In this document: in pieces, positions 56,510 to 64,000 of the stretch
How positions within the stretch are numbered: the stretch's first letter is position 1
How the letters are laid out: each line of letters opens with the position of its first letter
DNA from: an uncultured archaeon
Lineage (GTDB): Archaea > Aenigmatarchaeota > Aenigmatarchaeia > QMZP01
Direction: 5' to 3'
DNA length: 64,000 bases
NCBI GenBank assembly: GCA_964555875.1
Contig: CAZKUD010000003.1
Span: 14,659 to 78,658 of the forward strand
The notes under the pieces: generated by a model
Told to the model about the DNA's origin: nothing
What the model saw: the letters and a program-made list of their open reading frames with translations, nothing else
Database searches by the model: none
Made by a program: the position numbers and the translations under genes

Positions 56510-57184
56510 TTACAGCTTGGTTTGTTTTGACTCGCAGGACGCCTTTCCCGCCTTTATCTCCACCATGCCATAATAGCCGTCATAGACCGGGCCAGGATAA
56601 AAGAGCGTGGTGCCCCCCAGCCGGTCCTCTCCCCTGTTCTCATGTATGTGGGCGGAGATGGCCAGAAGCGGCTTCTTGGATTCTATGAATGCGCGTATCG
56701 CCTGGGATCCCACGTGGCCTCCCTTCGTCTTGTCCAGCTTGGTGTCCTTCGGGGGGCTGTGCACGACGAGGACGAACCCCCTGGGCGCCTTGGAAGAGAG
56801 CCTGTCCAGCCAGGCCGCAGTCTCCTTCTCGCTCGGCTCTATTATCGTGTTGAAGGGCGTCGCTGCGCCGCCGAACCCCAGGAAAGTGGTGCCCCCCCGC
56901 TTCTCTGTGGTGCAGTGGAGGTTAACCCCGTAGTTCCTGAACAGTTCTATTATCTCATACGGGTCATGGTTGCCGGGGACACATAGCACGGGCTTGCCTA
57001 TCGCAAGCAGCTGCTGAAGCACCATGTTGGCGACGTCCATCTGGGTGAAGTCCTGGGGGACACTGAACATGTCAGTGACGTCTCCGGGACAGACCACCAG
57101 GTCGAAGTCCTTTCCGGCAGCGTCTATCACCTTGGACAGCGCCCGCCTCTCACCATGTATATCAGCGAGTACCAGTATCCTCAT
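56510..57184 (-). CDS. Calcineurin-like metallophosphoesterase
   Basis: MRILVLADIHG, CPGDVTD, VPGNHD and HSPP motifs. Confidence 0.75.
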   Translation of the reverse strand: MRILVLADIHGERRALSKVIDAAGKDFDLVVCPGDVTDMFSVPQDFTQMDVANMVLQQLLAIGKPVLCVPGNHDPYEIIELFRNYGVNLHCTTEKRGGTTFLGFGGAATPFNTIIEPSEKETAAWLDRLSSKAPRGFVLVVHSPPKDTKLDKTKGGHVGSQAIRAFIESKKPLLAISAHIHENRGEDRLGGTTLFYPGPVYDGYYGMVEIKAGKASCESKQTKL

Positions 57185-57274
57185 ACTACTAATTGAAGCC
57201 TAATATTAAAAAATGCCTGACACCACGGTTTCCTGTGGAACTTGCCTTTTTTCTTTATTTCAGTTCTTTCAAAG

Positions 57275-57290
57275 TATTACAGTGTAATAT
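57275..57290. repeat. 16-nt palindromic element TATTACAGTGTAATAT, copy 1
   Basis: Exact duplicate of 57383-57398. Arms TATTAC/GTAATA surround a 3-4 nt centre. Confidence 0.8.
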
Positions 57291-57382
57291 TTAGAAATAG
57301 TTTTATAATACCCGATTTCCATAAGAAATAAAGGTGTCTGGGGTCCACATGAAATGAGGTGATCGTGGGCGCAGAGTACCGA

Positions 57383-57398
57383 TATTACAGTGTAATAT
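57383..57398. repeat. 16-nt palindromic element TATTACAGTGTAATAT, copy 2
   Basis: Exact duplicate of 57275-57290, 108 bp downstream. It lies about 57 nt upstream of the cdc6 ATG and about 30 nt upstream of a TATA-like ATTTAAA (57427-57433). Confidence 0.8.
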
Positions 57399-57454
57399 AA
57401 CAGGAGGGAAGAAACCCACAACAAGAATTTAAACCCCGGTTTCATATAGAGATT

Positions 57455-58654
57455 ATGGTCCAACAAACCCTGGGCGACATCTTCAGCGGCTATGTGCAGA
57501 AGGCAGGAGCGGTCTTCTCCAACAGGAACATCCTGTCACATGACCACATGCCTGAGCAGGCCATGCACAGGGACGAGCAGATGCAGCACCTTGCCACCAT
57601 ACTTGCCCCCTCCATACAGGGAGCCCGCCCCTCCAACGTGTTCCTCTACGGCAAGACCGGGACAGGCAAGACCCTGGTCGCCAGGCAGGTGACCAAGGAG
57701 CTGGAGAAGGCGTCTGACAGGGTGGTTGTGCTGTACATGAACTGCAAGATGAAGAGGGTGGCTGACACAGAGTACAGGCTTTTCGCAGAGCTCTCCCGGG
57801 AGCTCGGCAAGACCGTGCCCGCCACCGGCCTGCCGACAGACGAGGTGTACAGGATATTCTACGAGGCAATCGACTCCAGGCCCCAGAACGTCATACTCGT
57901 GCTAGACGAGATAGATGCCCTGGTCAGGAAGGTCGGCGACGAAATACTCTACAACCTCACCAGGGTCAATACAGAGCTGAAGCAGGCCAGGCTCTCGATG
58001 GTAGGCATCTCTAACAACATATCCTTCATAGAGTCCCTTGATTCCAGGGTGAAGTCCTCCCTCTCCGAGGAGGAGATAATATTCCCCCCATACAACGCCA
58101 ACCAGCTGAAGGACATCCTGTCCACCAGGGCAGAGAAGGCCTTCCACTCAGGCGCGCTCGGCGGCGGGGTGATAGAGAAGTGTGCCGCCCTGGCAGCACA
58201 GGAGCACGGCGACGCAAGAAAGGCGCTGGACCTGCTTCGGGTTGCAGGAGAGATGGCGGAGAGGAAGAAGGAGCCGACAGTGACATCGGGCTTCGTCGAT
58301 GCAGCGGAAGACAAGTTAGACCTGGACAGGACCACAGAGGTGGTGCAGGCACAGCCCAAGCAGTCCCTGGCCGTCCTTGCGGGCATCCTCAAGCTGACGG
58401 ACAAGGGAGAGAAGGACATCCAGACAGGGGACATCTTCCTGGAATATGAAAAGATATCAGCCAAGTGCGGCCTCAAGCCCCTCACCCAGAGGAGGGTCTC
58501 CGACCTTATAGCCGAGCTGGACATGCTGGGCATAATAAACGCAAAGGTGATATCAAAGGGCCGCTACGGAAGGACAAGGGAGATAAGGATACTCCTTGCA
58601 AGGCCCGCTGTGGAGAAGATACGGAGGGTGCTGGAAAGGAACTACCTGGTTTGA
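57455..58654 (+). CDS. cdc6: Orc1/Cdc6 replication initiator
   Basis: Walker A YGKTGTGKT, Walker B ILVLDEID, sensor regions and a C-terminal winged helix; 399 aa. Confidence 0.9.
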   Translation: MVQQTLGDIFSGYVQKAGAVFSNRNILSHDHMPEQAMHRDEQMQHLATILAPSIQGARPSNVFLYGKTGTGKTLVARQVTKELEKASDRVVVLYMNCKMKRVADTEYRLFAELSRELGKTVPATGLPTDEVYRIFYEAIDSRPQNVILVLDEIDALVRKVGDEILYNLTRVNTELKQARLSMVGISNNISFIESLDSRVKSSLSEEEIIFPPYNANQLKDILSTRAEKAFHSGALGGGVIEKCAALAAQEHGDARKALDLLRVAGEMAERKKEPTVTSGFVDAAEDKLDLDRTTEVVQAQPKQSLAVLAGILKLTDKGEKDIQTGDIFLEYEKISAKCGLKPLTQRRVSDLIAELDMLGIINAKVISKGRYGRTREIRILLARPAVEKIRRVLERNYLV

Positions 58655-58656
58655 TT

Positions 58657-59559
58657 ATGGACAAGAGGGAGATAGTGAGGAAGGCGCTGGAAAGGGGCGT
58701 GATGGTTTCCCCCGAGGCGCTTGAGGGCGCCGACTGGTCAGATATAGACTCGGTACTGGAGGAGGCCAAGCACATGCTAGTATACGGGTCCCCTGCGGGC
58801 GAAAAGAGGGGCCCAAACGTTTCTGTCAAGGAATCCGTCCCGAAGGCCAGGCTGAAGCCGAAGGACGTGGCGGACTTCTACAGCCAGAAATACAAGGCCA
58901 TGAGGCAGCTGCTGCTGAAGAAAGTCAAGGCAGTATCCATCAACAAGGCCCAGGACCTCAAATCAGGCGTGTCGGTCATAGGCATAGTGAAGGAACTGAC
59001 GCCCTCCGGCGCCGTCCTCGAGGACCAGACAGGCGAGATAGACGCCATAGGAAAGATTGATGCCGGAGAGGGCGATGTCCTGGGCGCCAAAGGCCAGGTA
59101 AGGGAGGGCAAGGTGATGGTTTCCGAAACCGTCTGGCCCGATGTCCCCCTTGTCAGGAAGCCCGGACGCATACATAACACGACCCTCCTCCTCACCTCAA
59201 AGGATGAGAAGGACGCGGACGTCATATTCTCCTCCTCAGGGGCAGAGGGCGCGACCCACGTTTCCCATTCCCCCACCTGGCTGACAGTCTCCAACAACGG
59301 CTCCTCCCTGACCGTGCTCGCCTACAAGACGGGCGAGAAGGACCTGAAGGCTGCTGCAGGCTGGCTCAAGAAGCGGTGCCTCCCGCACGAGGAGGTCCCT
59401 GGCCCGAAGAACCTTCACGTGATAGACCCTGTTCCTGACATCCTCTGGCTGATAGGGCCGCCTGCAGGGAAGGAGATTTACAAGGGAGTCTTAATAGTCT
59501 CCTGCGGAGAGGGCTCAGCCAAGGTCAACCTAGAGACGCTGGAAGCGGAGTTCAAGTAG
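58657..59559 (+). CDS. Short PolD small-subunit (DP1/B-subunit)-like protein: N-terminal helical domain plus OB fold, with degenerate or absent phosphoesterase motifs
   Basis: The N-terminus MDKREIVRKALERGVMVSPEALE resembles DP1 N-termini. OB-like segment VSVIGIVKELTPSGAVLEDQTGEIDAIG. The remaining roughly 160 aa lack the DxH/GDxxDG/GNHD motifs. The start is 2 nt after the cdc6 stop. Confidence 0.45.
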   Translation: MDKREIVRKALERGVMVSPEALEGADWSDIDSVLEEAKHMLVYGSPAGEKRGPNVSVKESVPKARLKPKDVADFYSQKYKAMRQLLLKKVKAVSINKAQDLKSGVSVIGIVKELTPSGAVLEDQTGEIDAIGKIDAGEGDVLGAKGQVREGKVMVSETVWPDVPLVRKPGRIHNTTLLLTSKDEKDADVIFSSSGAEGATHVSHSPTWLTVSNNGSSLTVLAYKTGEKDLKAAAGWLKKRCLPHEEVPGPKNLHVIDPVPDILWLIGPPAGKEIYKGVLIVSCGEGSAKVNLETLEAEFK

Positions 59560-59767: not shown

Positions 59768-60982
59768 TTACATGAGGCCGAAGTAGAACAGCATGATGGG
59801 CAGCATCAGGACCCCCATACAGCTGGTCCTCTTCACGCCAAACAGGGGAGGGAGGAGGCCTATGGACGTTGAAGTCACCATATACAGCATGCCGATGGGC
59901 CCTGTCATCAGCGCCACCATGCCGACCAGCATGACTATTATGGCCACCGACACCCTCCTGTAATCAAGCCTCTGGAACAGCCTGGCGAACCCCCTTCCGG
60001 CCCTTATTGTAAGGAAGGCCCCTGCCCCGGCAGAGAACAGGGCAGTCGCCATCAGGAGCAGCATCTCCCCGTAGCCGAAGTTCACGAGCACCTCCTGGAC
60101 AGCTACCGCAGCCCCTGACCTTGGCCTGGATATCAGGTACAGCGCCATGAGGGAGAACAGCGCTGCCACAGTGTTTATGCCTCCCAGGGAAACCATGAAC
60201 TCCCTAATCGACTTCCTCATGGAGAGCTCATGCGCCAGCACCCCTGCCTGCGCGGCGCCTATCCCGGGCAGCACTCCCATGAGCATGCCTGAGAAGAACC
60301 CCTTCACGCTTCCCATCACAGTCTCCTTCACAGGAAGCCTCACAGGAGCCTGGCTCTGCCTGGGCACCGATATGCCGGAGCCTATGCTTATAATTAGTGT
60401 GCTTATCCCGAACAGTCCAGTGAAGATGGGAAACAGCATGCTCTGATCTGGCAATAATGGCGTCTCCATTGTCATGACACCCAATATACCGGAAAGCCCG
60501 AACACAATCAGGCCATAGACCCTCTTCATCCCCTCATCCAGAAGTATCATGACCCCGGCTATCGCCAGCAGGAGCCAGGCCATGTATGACTTGATTCCCA
60601 TATATAGTATGGGCAGGACAACGGAGACCAGAGGGAACAGGACAACTGACAGCATGATAACGCCCAGCCCGCCCGCCACTGTCAGGCATACCGCCTCCTG
60701 CGCCTGGCCCTTCAGCAGGAACCTGTGCCCAGGCAGGACAGAGAGGGCGGTCTCCCCTTCCGGCGCGCCTATGAACACAGACGGTATGAAGTTAAGGAAA
60801 GTGTTGGAGATGGCCATCGATGTGACGAACACAGCTATAGCGTGAGGCGTGAAGAAGAGCAGGAGCGAGGAGGTGGATGCTAGCATGACTGCAGCCACAG
60901 TGTTCGGGTGTACCCCGGGTATCAGGCCTGTGAATGTGCCTCCCAACACCCCAATCATGGCCATTAGCGCGAACTCCATCAT
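59768..60982 (-). CDS. TctA/DUF112-family integral membrane protein (putative transporter)
   Basis: 404 aa, highly hydrophobic, with GLIPGVHPNT and LPGIGAAQAGV motifs typical of DUF112/TctA. Confidence 0.6.
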   Translation of the reverse strand: MMEFALMAMIGVLGGTFTGLIPGVHPNTVAAVMLASTSSLLLFFTPHAIAVFVTSMAISNTFLNFIPSVFIGAPEGETALSVLPGHRFLLKGQAQEAVCLTVAGGLGVIMLSVVLFPLVSVVLPILYMGIKSYMAWLLLAIAGVMILLDEGMKRVYGLIVFGLSGILGVMTMETPLLPDQSMLFPIFTGLFGISTLIISIGSGISVPRQSQAPVRLPVKETVMGSVKGFFSGMLMGVLPGIGAAQAGVLAHELSMRKSIREFMVSLGGINTVAALFSLMALYLISRPRSGAAVAVQEVLVNFGYGEMLLLMATALFSAGAGAFLTIRAGRGFARLFQRLDYRRVSVAIIVMLVGMVALMTGPIGMLYMVTSTSIGLLPPLFGVKRTSCMGVLMLPIMLFYFGLM

Positions 60983-61347
60983 AGTCCCAGGCTGTCAGCC
61001 AGTATCTCCACGCTCCCCTTGTACATCCCCACCTTTCCCAGCGCGCATATGTTGTCCCCCTCCTTGAGGGAGTAGGGGTTGCCTGTCATTCCCCTGGCAG
61101 TGCCATTGAACACGACCACGCTGATGGTTCCTGTCTCGTCAGTCAGCCTGAAGAAGAGATGGTTGTTCTTCGAAACATGCTTGTATGTTATGTTCCCGCA
61201 TACCTTTGCTGCCACGCCTGTCATGTCCCCTGTGACGCCGCCTATCTCCAGTGCGTTCTCAGACACCTGGCCTGAAACCAGGAATATCGAGAGCAGCCCA
61301 AGGAGCGAGCAGGCAAGGGAGAGCTTCAGGAGCCCTGATTCCTCCAT
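60979..61347 (-). CDS. Membrane-anchored OB-fold (tRNA_anti-like) protein
   Basis: N-terminal TM segment, then FFRLTDETGTISVVVFNG...LKEGDNICALGKVGMYKGSVEI, an OB-fold pattern. ATG at 61347 is preferred. ATGA-type overlap with the downstream gene. Confidence 0.55.
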   Translation of the reverse strand: MEESGLLKLSLACSLLGLLSIFLVSGQVSENALEIGGVTGDMTGVAAKVCGNITYKHVSKNNHLFFRLTDETGTISVVVFNGTARGMTGNPYSLKEGDNICALGKVGMYKGSVEILADSLGL

Positions 61348-61398: not shown

Positions 61399-61625
61399 CC
61401 TGAATGTTTACTTCACACCCCTTCATTTCACATGGAACATTACGTCACATGAACTTCACCCCCTCGTTTCAGGTGGAAAAGTCCGCATGATGTCGAAATG
61501 AAATTCACATGAAGACACCCTTGTTTCATGTGCAACACCCGTTAACTTCATGTCCAGCTTCAGAATCCTTCATTTCCAGGCGTGAACAAGAGATTACGCA
61601 GAATCAGCAGGAATGAAGGTAATGT
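61399..61625. repeat. Intergenic cluster of ORB-like short repeats (core TTCAYRTG, several followed by a CACCC string)
   Basis: TTTCACATGGAA (61426-61437), GTCACATGAACTTCACCCCC (61444-61463), TTTCAGGTGGAAAA (61467-61480), TTCACATGAAGACACCC (61504-61520), TTTCATGTGCAACACCC (61524-61540), CTTCATGTCCAGC (61546-61558). CCTTCATTTC occurs twice (about 61419 and 61567). Confidence 0.6.
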
Positions 61626-64000
61626 TCAGTTCACGACAGCCTCAGCAGGCCCGTTGGCTGAGGCGAAATTGAGCTTGCCCCCGCAGCTGCAGGTTCCCAT
61701 CAGGGGCATCCTCTGGTAATGCTTGCTGCATTTTGAGCACAGGAAGCCCGTCATCTCATCCTTCTTGATACTTTTCATCACCTTGGGCCCATCCTCCGCA
61801 GCATTCGCTGCCCTCCCCTTCCTGAGTATGTCCAGCAGGCCCACTTGCTTGCCCCCTCCCATCAGCTCGGACTTCGTGATGCCCATGGCACCGAATATCC
61901 TCTCCAGGGGAGGCATGAGCTGGTTGTCTATATAATAAGAGGCGTCTATCTGCAGCCCCTTCTCCTTTATGTATGATGGGTCCTCTGCCCTCTTGCTCAG
62001 CATCTCCTTGCCCTTCACTATGACGTACTCTATCCTGTCCCCCACGCCAGGGGCGTCTACAGCGTTCCTGGCTTTCATTTTGGTGACAAGCTCTATGTGC
62101 GGCTGCACCCCCTTGTAGTGCTTGGGCGCCTTGGTCATGGTCTTGGTGATTATCAGCTTGCTTATGTCTATCTTCCCTGCCAGCAGGTCGTCTATCACAC
62201 CCTTGAAATACTTCATGGCCCCCTTCACGTCCTCCTGCTTCAGTATTATCTCTATGACCTCCTTGAGGGTCTCTCCCACCAGCTTGCACCAGTCCCTCCT
62301 AACGGTCTCTATGCCCTTCATCTCCAGGCCCTCGTCCCATCCCTCCTTCGTCCTCTCGAACTTCCAGGCAGCGTACCTCTTCTTGGTGAGGGGCAGGAAC
62401 CTCTTGAATATCTTCTCGAACTCCAGCTCCTGGGTGCCCAGCAGGTTCGCCGTTATCTCCCCCGCTATCTTGTCTGCTATCCTCCCCATCTCATCCATGT
62501 CCTCTATGCCCTTGAGCTTGGCGAAGACGGAATCAGTGTCCCCGTACACTATCTGGTAGCCGTACTTCTTCTCGACGACGTCTTTGGTGTTGTGTATGGT
62601 CTCCCTGCCTATTGAGGTGATGGAATTTGCTATGTCCAGGTCGAACAGCTTTGACCTGGCGTACCCGAAGTATCCGTACATGGCATTGGCCATTATCTTC
62701 AGCGCCCATTGCTTGGCGTGCATCTCCCTGTGCTTGTTCTCGTCCTTCACGTCCTTCATGGCCTTCTTCACGGCCCCCCTCTCGTTCATGAGGGTCTCCA
62801 GGAGGTCCGGCACTATGCCCCTCTTCCTCTCCTTCTTGAGGAACCATGTCCCCGCAGGCGTGATGGTAAGGTCCTCCTTCTTCACGCCCGCCTCCTCTTC
62901 CTGCCCCTGGTTGACCTTGGTCGTCGGGCAGATGTTGAACGACCTTATGATGGAGGGGTACATGGACTTGAAGTCCAGCACAGCCACGGACGAATGCAGG
63001 CCCTTCACCGGCTCCAGCACCGCCCCTCCTCCCAGCTCCTCTTTCCTTCCCAGGCCTCTCTTCGCTGCCGTGGCATCGTCGGGCTTGCATGGGAATACAT
63101 ACCCCTTCTGGTTGAACACCCTCAGCATGTAGTTCTCTATCCTTGTGGTCTCCCCGGAATCCAGGGTGTCCTGCAGCAGCGTGCCCGACACCTTTGAAAG
63201 AGCGGTGTGCTTGTCTATCAGCTTCATCTTCTGCACAAGGTCCAGCGCCAGCTGCGAGTCCTTCCTGCAGTATTCTGCCAGCTTCCTGAACTCCTCGTCG
63301 CTTCCCTTCCAGAACTTCTCTATCTCCGAGTGCTTCACGTCCTCCTTCTGCTCCCCGATGAGGGCATTGGCCACGAAGTTCAGGCTGTACCTCTGGAGGG
63401 AGAAGTCCTTCTTCACTATGGCGAAGGAGTCCAGCGCTATCCTTCCGGTCAGGTTGACCTTTGTGCTTATGCCTATCTTCCTGTGCGACGTCCTCTTCTG
63501 CAGGCACCTCCCCAGGAACGGCTTAACGTCAAGCTTGTACATCCTGTCGAGTATGTAGGGGAAGTCGAAGTTGTTGCAGTTGTAGCCTGTCATGAAGTCA
63601 GGGTCATACCTCTTCACCATCTTCACGAACTCTTCCAGCATCCCGCTCTCAGAATCGAACGACATCACATTGTCCCCCTTCCTCGTGCTCAGAACCACGG
63701 ACTTGTTGCCCTCGAACGGGTGGCTGAACACCAGGGAAACCATTATGATGGGGTCCTTCTTGGGGTCCGGAAGGGCTCCAGAGGAAGACACGCACTCCAG
63801 GTCGAATGCCAGGTACTTCAGGTCAGCATTCCCGCCCTTGTCTATGGGCACAAGCTTCTTCACGGTGAACTTCTTGTCAGCCTGGACGGTTTCCGTGTTC
63901 GCGAACTGGTCCCCCTCGGTCCTGCACCACCCCATGCCCGACAGGCCCATGTCAGCCATGACCCTGTACTTGAAGAGGACGTCCGCCTCGTATACCGTTA
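61626..64000 (-). CDS. polB: Family B DNA polymerase (PolB), 5' end beyond the window
   Basis: Exo I FDLE, motif A DFKSMYPSII, motif B KIMANAMYGYFG and motif C YGDTDS. The frame stays open upstream of the listed Met to the window edge (..YEADVLFKYRVMADMGL..). Confidence 0.9.
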   Translation of the reverse strand, partial: TVYEADVLFKYRVMADMGLSGMGWCRTEGDQFANTETVQADKKFTVKKLVPIDKGGNADLKYLAFDLECVSSSGALPDPKKDPIIMVSLVFSHPFEGNKSVVLSTRKGDNVMSFDSESGMLEEFVKMVKRYDPDFMTGYNCNNFDFPYILDRMYKLDVKPFLGRCLQKRTSHRKIGISTKVNLTGRIALDSFAIVKKDFSLQRYSLNFVANALIGEQKEDVKHSEIEKFWKGSDEEFRKLAEYCRKDSQLALDLVQKMKLIDKHTALSKVSGTLLQDTLDSGETTRIENYMLRVFNQKGYVFPCKPDDATAAKRGLGRKEELGGGAVLEPVKGLHSSVAVLDFKSMYPSIIRSFNICPTTKVNQGQEEEAGVKKEDLTITPAGTWFLKKERKRGIVPDLLETLMNERGAVKKAMKDVKDENKHREMHAKQWALKIMANAMYGYFGYARSKLFDLDIANSITSIGRETIHNTKDVVEKKYGYQIVYGDTDSVFAKLKGIEDMDEMGRIADKIAGEITANLLGTQELEFEKIFKRFLPLTKKRYAAWKFERTKEGWDEGLEMKGIETVRRDWCKLVGETLKEVIEIILKQEDVKGAMKYFKGVIDDLLAGKIDISKLIITKTMTKAPKHYKGVQPHIELVTKMKARNAVDAPGVGDRIEYVIVKGKEMLSKRAEDPSYIKEKGLQIDASYYIDNQLMPPLERIFGAMGITKSELMGGGKQVGLLDILRKGRAANAAEDGPKVMKSIKKDEMTGFLCSKCSKHYQRMPLMGTCSCGGKLNFASANGPAEAVVN

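Follow-up and report, generated by a model that had tools for sequence, protein, structure and literature searches.

The spacer between the stop codon of polB and the start of a neighbouring OB-fold gene (61399-61625) in the window analysed here, a 64-kb stretch of an archaeal genome (contig C3:14659-78658), is crowded with sequences resembling those upstream of orc1/cdc6. This raises the question of whether it represents a second replication origin, an operator, the target of another DNA-binding protein, or an auxiliary part of the cdc6-proximal origin, which lies about 4 kb away. The initial annotation, which had described a dense group of ORB-like repeats centred on TTCAYRTG, offered extra Orc1/Cdc6 sites within a split, extended or second origin, an Orc1/Cdc6-dependent operator, and sites for a different regulator as candidate explanations.

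The origin region and its neighbours

The genome comprises 1.09 Mb in 15 contigs. The locus begins with a minus-strand metallophosphoesterase gene (56510-57184), followed on the plus strand by orc1/cdc6 (57455-58654), encoding a 399-aa protein with Cdc6_lid, Cdc6_C and AAA domains, and by a conserved gene for a 300-aa protein (58657-59559) that comes next after cdc6 across the class and has no Pfam match. The remaining genes are on the minus strand and encode TctA (59768-60982), an OB-fold membrane protein (60979-61347) and the family B DNA polymerase PolB (61626-63959), the last two flanking the spacer as originally described. When the OB-fold gene is taken to start at the likelier ATG (61347), the spacer measures 278 bp. 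As also claimed, it is less AT-rich than the cdc6 spacer (GC 0.446 vs 0.359). Its ORBs (hereafter cluster B) begin 70 nt past the polB stop codon and 2.8 kb past the cdc6 stop codon, with three genes intervening, and are thus not directly adjacent to orc1/cdc6. An Rfam scan of 56.9-61.9 kb returned no credible family, single-strand folding of the polB spacer is unremarkable (z = -1.9), and cumulative GC skew along the 166-kb contig C3 tracks gene strand, with no inflection at the locus, and is uninformative.

The true origin is the spacer upstream of cdc6 (57185-57454), which contains the four ORBs of cluster A (57221-57450): A1 (TCCACAGGAAACCGTGGTG; 57221-57239, minus strand), A2 (TCCATAAGAAATAAAGGTG; 57318-57336, plus), A3 (TCCACATGAAATGAGGTG; 57344-57361, plus) and A4 (TCTATATGAAACCGGGG; 57434-57450, minus). 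The AT-rich core between A1 and A2 holds the least stable 40-mer of the entire window, at 57271 (-39.0 kcal/mol; 15% GC), and the ORBs around it are inverted with their cores facing inward. A4 fits exactly between a TATA-like TTTAAA (57428-57433) and the cdc6 ATG (57455), a position that makes it plausible that Orc1/Cdc6 represses its own, probably leaderless, transcript. The same spacer carries two identical 16-nt palindromes, TATTACAGTGTAATAT, at 57275-57290 and 57383-57398 (108 bp apart), which are unrelated to the ORB motif.

Anatomy and rarity of the polB-side sites

Four full ORBs, all in direct orientation, occupy 61416-61556 on the minus (polB-coding) strand. The unit in cluster B is TCCAYRTGAAAY followed after 2-4 nt by GGGGTG, and the resemblance to the element upstream of cdc6 noted at the outset holds, as both spacers share a general unit of 19-21 nt composed of a core and, 2-4 nt further on, a G-string: TCC(A)-N4-GAAAY, 2-4 nt, GGKG. 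B1 (TCCATGTGAAATGAAGGGGTG; 61416-61436) has the full TTCC-N4-GAA core and G-string, and is followed by B2 (TCCACCTGAAACGAGGGGGTG; 61457-61477), B3 (TGCACATGAAACAAGGGTG; 61516-61534) and the ORB-like B4 (TGGACATGAAGTTAACGGGTG; 61536-61556), which is of the GAAGT type. A half ORB (TGGAAATGAAGGATTC; 61563-61578), consisting of the GAAATGAAGG part only, lies beyond these on the same strand. The core dyad TTCC-N4-GAA(A) is exact in B1 (TTCCATGTGAAAT) and B2 (TTCCACCTGAAAC), and deviates at one position in B3 and two in B4; G-strings (GGGGTG, GGGGGTG, GGGTG and GGGTG) follow the four cores at 2-4 nt. Mutagenesis has shown that the TTCC-N4-GAA core is required for Cdc6 binding in Pyrococcus (Matsunaga et al., PMC1904270).

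Other conserved elements are interleaved with the ORBs. A palindromic box, reading GTGAAGTTCATGTGAC on the minus strand (61442-61459), abuts the G-string of B2 and contains ATGAACTTCAC on the plus strand (61449-61459), a sequence of the GTGAA-N-TTCAY type. A box TTCATGTGAATTTCAT (61498-61513) includes a further palindrome of this type, ATGAAATTCAC (61498-61508, plus strand). Between these, 3 nt upstream of B2, lies a non-ORB block on the minus strand (TTCATTTCGACATCATGCGGAC; 61481-61502; consensus TTCATTTC-N5-6-CATGCG-RRC), which is present as a single copy in the genome. Both the palindromic box after B2-type ORBs and the non-ORB block beside them have kept their place in at least eight genera. 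A C/D-box sRNA was considered for the conserved CATGATG block and rejected, given that there is no D box and that ATGAT is not conserved among relatives.

The sequences first reported from the spacer are all present, though in a different register. The three strings described as running from the TTCAYRTG motif into cytosines (GTCACATGAACTTCACCCCC at 61444-61463, TTCACATGAAGACACCC at 61504-61520 and TTTCATGTGCAACACCC at 61524-61540) were assigned wrongly, in that each C-string belongs to the next core downstream on the plus strand. The reported duplication of CCTTCATTTC (61420-61429 and 61567-61576) corresponds to the GAAATGAAGG part of the ORB unit. TTCAYRTG itself occurs exactly five times, at four places (61427-61532), and one-mismatch copies (TTCAGGTG and TTCATGTC) bring the total to six sites, against the at least six originally counted. 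This octamer is mildly enriched over the window (14 vs 7.1 expected; 4 of 100 shuffles reach 14). Its clustering within the spacer is not due to chance: five copies fall within 227 bp, where 0.05 would be expected (Poisson P ~2e-9).

A more specific pattern, TCCACAKGAAAYNNNGGTG, was derived from the ORBs of the cdc6 spacer alone, thereby avoiding circularity, and searched at up to three mismatches. The window contains nine matches against 1.9 expected, a number reached by none of 100 shuffles; of these, the cdc6 spacer accounts for four and the polB spacer for three. Across the whole 1.09-Mb genome there are 22 matches, of which seven are within these two spacers (~550 bp together), as are four of the six found at two mismatches or fewer and all five matches to a looser regular expression. 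The initial annotation had reasoned, among other things, that its proposal would fail if the motif were common in many promoters genome-wide. The elements of cluster B instead equal the boxes beside orc1/cdc6 and are rare elsewhere, and this near-confinement to two spacers indicates that promoters do not generally carry the motif.

Conservation across the order and class

The distribution of ORBs among relatives was examined by searching 31 genomes of the order with a strict pattern, TCCAYNKGAAAYN{1,5}GGKG, and placing the sites by polB and cdc6 coordinates. By manual count, 40 of the 41 distinct sites are at the cdc6 or polB/TctA loci, with 19 just upstream of cdc6 and 21 in the polB/TctA spacer; the other is on a 7.4-kb contig (G007:C76:6664-6680; L048). 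The reversed pattern, used as a control, yielded two matches in the same genomes. Linkage of polB and cdc6 is seen in nearly all of the 30 relatives within the order. In G021, where the two genes appear unlinked, the contig breaks inside TctA just past the polB-side ORB. Within the order, the two-cluster layout extends to 26 genera, and elsewhere in the class it recurs in at least four families.

The usual arrangement within the order, based on 20 mapped loci, is metallophosphoesterase, cluster A, cdc6 and the 300-aa gene (both forward), sometimes other genes, forward TctA, cluster B and reverse polB. In most genera of the order, cluster B is therefore situated where TctA and polB converge, between their 3' ends, and even with genomes of ~1 Mb these convergent spacers still measure 215-300 bp. 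Class-wide sampling (90 genomes of the phylum and 16 further loci) revealed a layout of cluster A, forward cdc6, 300-aa gene and polB, cluster B, and reverse TctA, with the 300-aa gene following cdc6 in every examined locus except that of G096. Cluster B was found by pattern in four other families (G031, G064, G090 and G094) and is missing by pattern in several families of the class, indicating that it is dispensable in some relatives; in two families that lack it (f8 and f23), the polB/TctA spacer is just 64-72 bp.

Compared with other members of the class, the window's order has the entire polB-cluster B-TctA block inverted. The OB-fold/TctA pair itself is inverted only here and in a few other genomes (G002, G006 and G012), such that the cluster precedes the pair; the gene orders thus record two nested rearrangements, the second being a re-inversion of OB-fold/TctA within the inverted block. 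In G025 (C16:6841-11658), the polB match is divided into three pieces of one 1730-aa open frame, which suggests inteins.

Conservation of sequence is concentrated in the core of the spacer. Between the window genome and its same-genus relative G001, the module that begins with B4 and ends with the box following B2 is 87% identical, compared with 66-67% for the flanking parts of the spacer and 53% for 4-fold degenerate sites of polB; the PolB proteins are 85% identical. Comparison of these sequences indicates that the core module is under purifying selection. In at least eight genera with PolB proteins that share only 55-60% identity with the one here, the elements of a 95-nt module (a B3-type ORB, a TTCAC box, the TTCATTTC-N5-6-CATGCG block, a B2-type ORB and a TTCAYRTGA box) follow one another in the same order and at the same spacing.

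Two further changes were observed among individual ORBs. B1 is flipped in place between the window (TCCATGTGAAATGAAGGGG) and G001, with the flanks conserved; after reverse complementing, 18 of 19 positions of the G001 copy are identical, so that its presence but not its orientation has been kept. In four genera, free-standing LAGLIDADG_3 genes encoding 127-232 aa are present within the polB-side cluster (L036 of G003, 537-1281; L025 of G006, 640-1121; L030 of G012, 659-1550; and L033 of G005). In three of the four, the gene lies between direct repeats of 40-49 nt that are 95-100% identical and contain a B4-type box (TSCACATGAAGT-N4-GGGT), of which the window has a single, empty copy. B4 may be an insertion or homing target for the LAGLIDADG gene.

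Possible roles of the polB-side cluster

The suggestion that the region is a second, independent origin (oriC2), served by the same Orc1/Cdc6 and located 4 kb from the first, is very unlikely, even though its four full ORBs are as similar to the origin ORBs as the latter are to one another. In a further family of this order (G019, G024, G027 and G030), the polB-side cluster even includes a pair of inverted ORBs with cores facing inward, ~45 bp apart. In this genome, however, all four polB-side ORBs point in the same direction, where an origin would have inverted ORBs around an AT-rich DUE, and the spacer contains no DUE-like DNA: its least stable 40-mer (-49.0 kcal/mol, against -39.0 kcal/mol in the cdc6 spacer) is only within the top 3% of the window, and the GC content of the spacer is 0.446. 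The same is true of relatives. At the 17 loci compared, the least stable DNA (or nearly the least stable, at loci where cluster A is cut by a contig end) is in the cdc6 spacer, whereas cluster B ranks at 0.2-13% (4-11% at the loci with inverted pairs) and is never the extreme; none of the 17 has a DUE on the polB side. The distance to orc1/cdc6 also counts against an origin, and GC skew is uninformative here. Given the absence of a DUE and of inverted ORBs, the polB spacer is not considered a second origin. An operator function is likewise improbable as the main role. According to this proposal, Orc1/Cdc6 would be a transcription factor that represses the OB-fold/TctA operon, or would serve as a transcriptional roadblock or a terminator where polB ends. 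The cluster is upstream of the OB-fold/TctA pair in this genome, with B1 ending ~5 nt from a weak TATA-like sequence (AAGTAAAC) that is conserved in G001; the position of A4 makes Orc1 autoregulation plausible at cdc6, and cluster B has stayed at the polB 3' end even as the polB-TctA block was inverted. Among most genera of the order, and more widely in the class, though, the cluster lies between convergent TctA and polB 3' ends, where no promoter is expected, most relatives have no OB-fold gene at that position, and no other promoter in the genome carries the ORB motif. As the sites are not at a promoter wherever they are conserved, promoter control is not their conserved role. What survives of this proposal is a possible local side effect on the OB-fold/TctA promoter.

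Another alternative is that the main occupant is a different DNA-binding protein which recognizes a GTGAA/TTCAY half-site, with the resemblance to ORBs being a partial overlap. Candidates are a conserved AAA_22 plus winged-helix protein (G000:C2:37813-38856, G000 being the window genome) and a second Cdc6 paralog (C5:41727-42668). Of all TTCAY/RTGAA loci in the genome, only the promoter region of the AAA_22 plus winged-helix gene is denser than cluster B (14 half-sites per 250 bp vs a mean of 1.2); cluster B contains two of the ten RTGAA-N-TTCAY palindromes in the genome, and its boxes and non-ORB block are conserved in place across at least eight genera. Nevertheless, many of the TTCAY counts are ORB cores, and a 5-nt half-site does not account for the full 19-21-nt likeness to the cdc6 ORBs, spacer and G-string included. 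Moreover, the array at the AAA_22 gene consists of direct TTCAC-N6-TTCAC repeats, and all five genomic cases of this arrangement are there and none is in cluster B. This explanation is therefore unlikely for the region as a whole, but may hold for the GTGAA/TTCAY boxes and the non-ORB block.

The preferred reading, with a probability of roughly 0.7, is that 61399-61625 is a DUE-less accessory Orc1/Cdc6 cluster of the origin region that controls or shapes the neighbouring origin. The proposal of extra Orc1/Cdc6 sites is well supported by the ORB architecture of cluster B, by its near-confinement, with cluster A, to two spacers and by the signature of purifying selection. Several ORBs are located away from the origin itself, across the initiator gene from it; they are specific to two loci, are conserved in position and as a module, and have neither an origin nor a general promoter context. 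Counting against this reading are the absence of cluster B from several families of the class, the deviations of B3 and B4 from the core, and the chance that B4 is instead a target of LAGLIDADG insertion. From the sequence, we infer that Orc1/Cdc6 occupies cluster B and that this would influence the origin in one of two ways. Cluster B marks the far end of a replication-gene island (cdc6, the 300-aa gene and polB), and its sites would be occupied by Orc1/Cdc6 produced from the neighbouring gene. They may hold the initiator off the origin, amounting to titration and hence negative control, by analogy with oriC2D of Haloarcula hispanica. Alternatively, cluster B may be bridged to the complex on the cdc6 spacer in a higher-order loop, as proposed for oriC and dp1 of Pyrococcus. 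Both mechanisms are plausible. As cluster B is 4 kb from the DUE, it would be copied within seconds of firing, and a sink of this type would double right after initiation. The orientation of the cluster follows polB through the ancient inversion, which could mean that it is tied to the 3' end of polB and not to the origin.

The closest parallel is in Pyrococcus and Thermococcus, where cdc6 is located between two ORB clusters, one at oriC and the other inside dp1, in a layout conserved in Thermococcales (PMC1904270). In Pyrococcus, ChIP and gel shifts (EMSA) have shown binding of Cdc6 to both clusters, and looping between them has been proposed (Matsunaga et al., NAR 2007, PMC1904270). The present locus similarly has cdc6 between two ORB clusters, the second of them at a DNA polymerase gene, in an order-wide layout and with the TTCC-N4-GAA core. 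It differs in that cluster B is intergenic and behind polB, whereas the dp1 cluster is inside coding sequence; in its greater distance from the DUE (4 kb with three genes between, vs 1.5 kb); in having four full ORBs, each with a G-string, where dp1 has a single 23-bp ORB and mini-ORBs; and in the non-ORB motifs interleaved with these. Cdc6 binding is established in Pyrococcus, while here it is predicted from sequence. In haloarchaea, ORBs commonly occur in both spacers around cdc6 genes (PMC3528665). The ORB-rich oriC2D of H. hispanica, downstream of cdc6E, has no ARS activity (Wu et al., NAR 2014, PMC3936714) and restrains oriC2, probably by titrating Cdc6E (PMC3936714). Like cluster B, oriC2D is a separate ORB cluster on the far side of the initiator gene; it has no origin activity of its own, as is predicted for cluster B, and has been explained as an initiator sink, a role that cluster B may share by analogy. 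Unlike cluster B, whose four ORBs span 140 bp at the single conserved cdc6 locus of a 1-Mb genome, it packs 11 ORBs into the 722 bp that immediately follow cdc6E and is part of a secondary origin that was probably acquired. Among bacteria, Bacillus subtilis has DnaA-box clusters on both sides of dnaA, only one of which has an unwinding element, and the DUE-less box cluster datA near the Escherichia coli origin lowers initiation potential (PMC1904270, PMC3936714). These bipartite origins and datA are analogous to cluster B in logic only, given that they depend on DnaA and not Orc1/Cdc6.

To our knowledge, experimental evidence for accessory clusters that bind the initiator comes from just two groups of archaea, the Thermococcales and the haloarchaea, and a literature search found no paper on origins in Aenigmatarchaeota. 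The two-cluster layout is now seen to extend through an entire order, and into parts of a class, of DPANN archaea whose genomes measure about 1 Mb. Genomes of this sort tolerate little non-coding DNA, which argues for a real role of cluster B in replication control. Annotations of these genomes should not label ORB clusters behind polB as second origins. With only 140 bp and a fixed arrangement of ORBs and a second motif, the module also offers a defined substrate on which to study recombinant Orc1/Cdc6, MCM and candidate partners in vitro.

The interleaved boxes and non-ORB block, whose geometry is fixed across at least eight genera, point to a second factor, the role of which could be dominant. 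It is tentatively possible that the spacer is a composite control locus, with Orc1/Cdc6 on the ORBs and a second conserved protein on the GTGAA-N-TTCAY boxes and the TTCATTTC-N5-6-CATGCG block. If the two-factor reading is true, the polB spacer would be an archaeal origin-control site with an accessory factor, comparable to the action of the ucm and UBP at Sulfolobus oriC1, but away from the DUE. The best candidate for such a factor is the single-copy AAA_22 plus winged-helix protein, since its own promoter has the densest TTCAC array; the other is the second Cdc6 paralog, beside which no box array was found on C5. The gene for the former, which encodes 348 aa, is present in single copy in 30 of 31 relatives, and in many of them TTCAC boxes precede its TATA box. 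In the window genome, its array has 16 TTCAY/RTGAA half-sites per 250 bp (C2:38857-39146). Because the phased TTCAC-N6-TTCAC arrangement is absent from cluster B, what connects the two loci is the shared half-site, and the link is no more than suggestive. Gene and array together span C2:37813-39146 (L067:2311-3647). The array occupies a 290-bp divergent spacer that contains four of the TTCAC-N6-TTCAC repeats, with one more ~550 bp beyond it.
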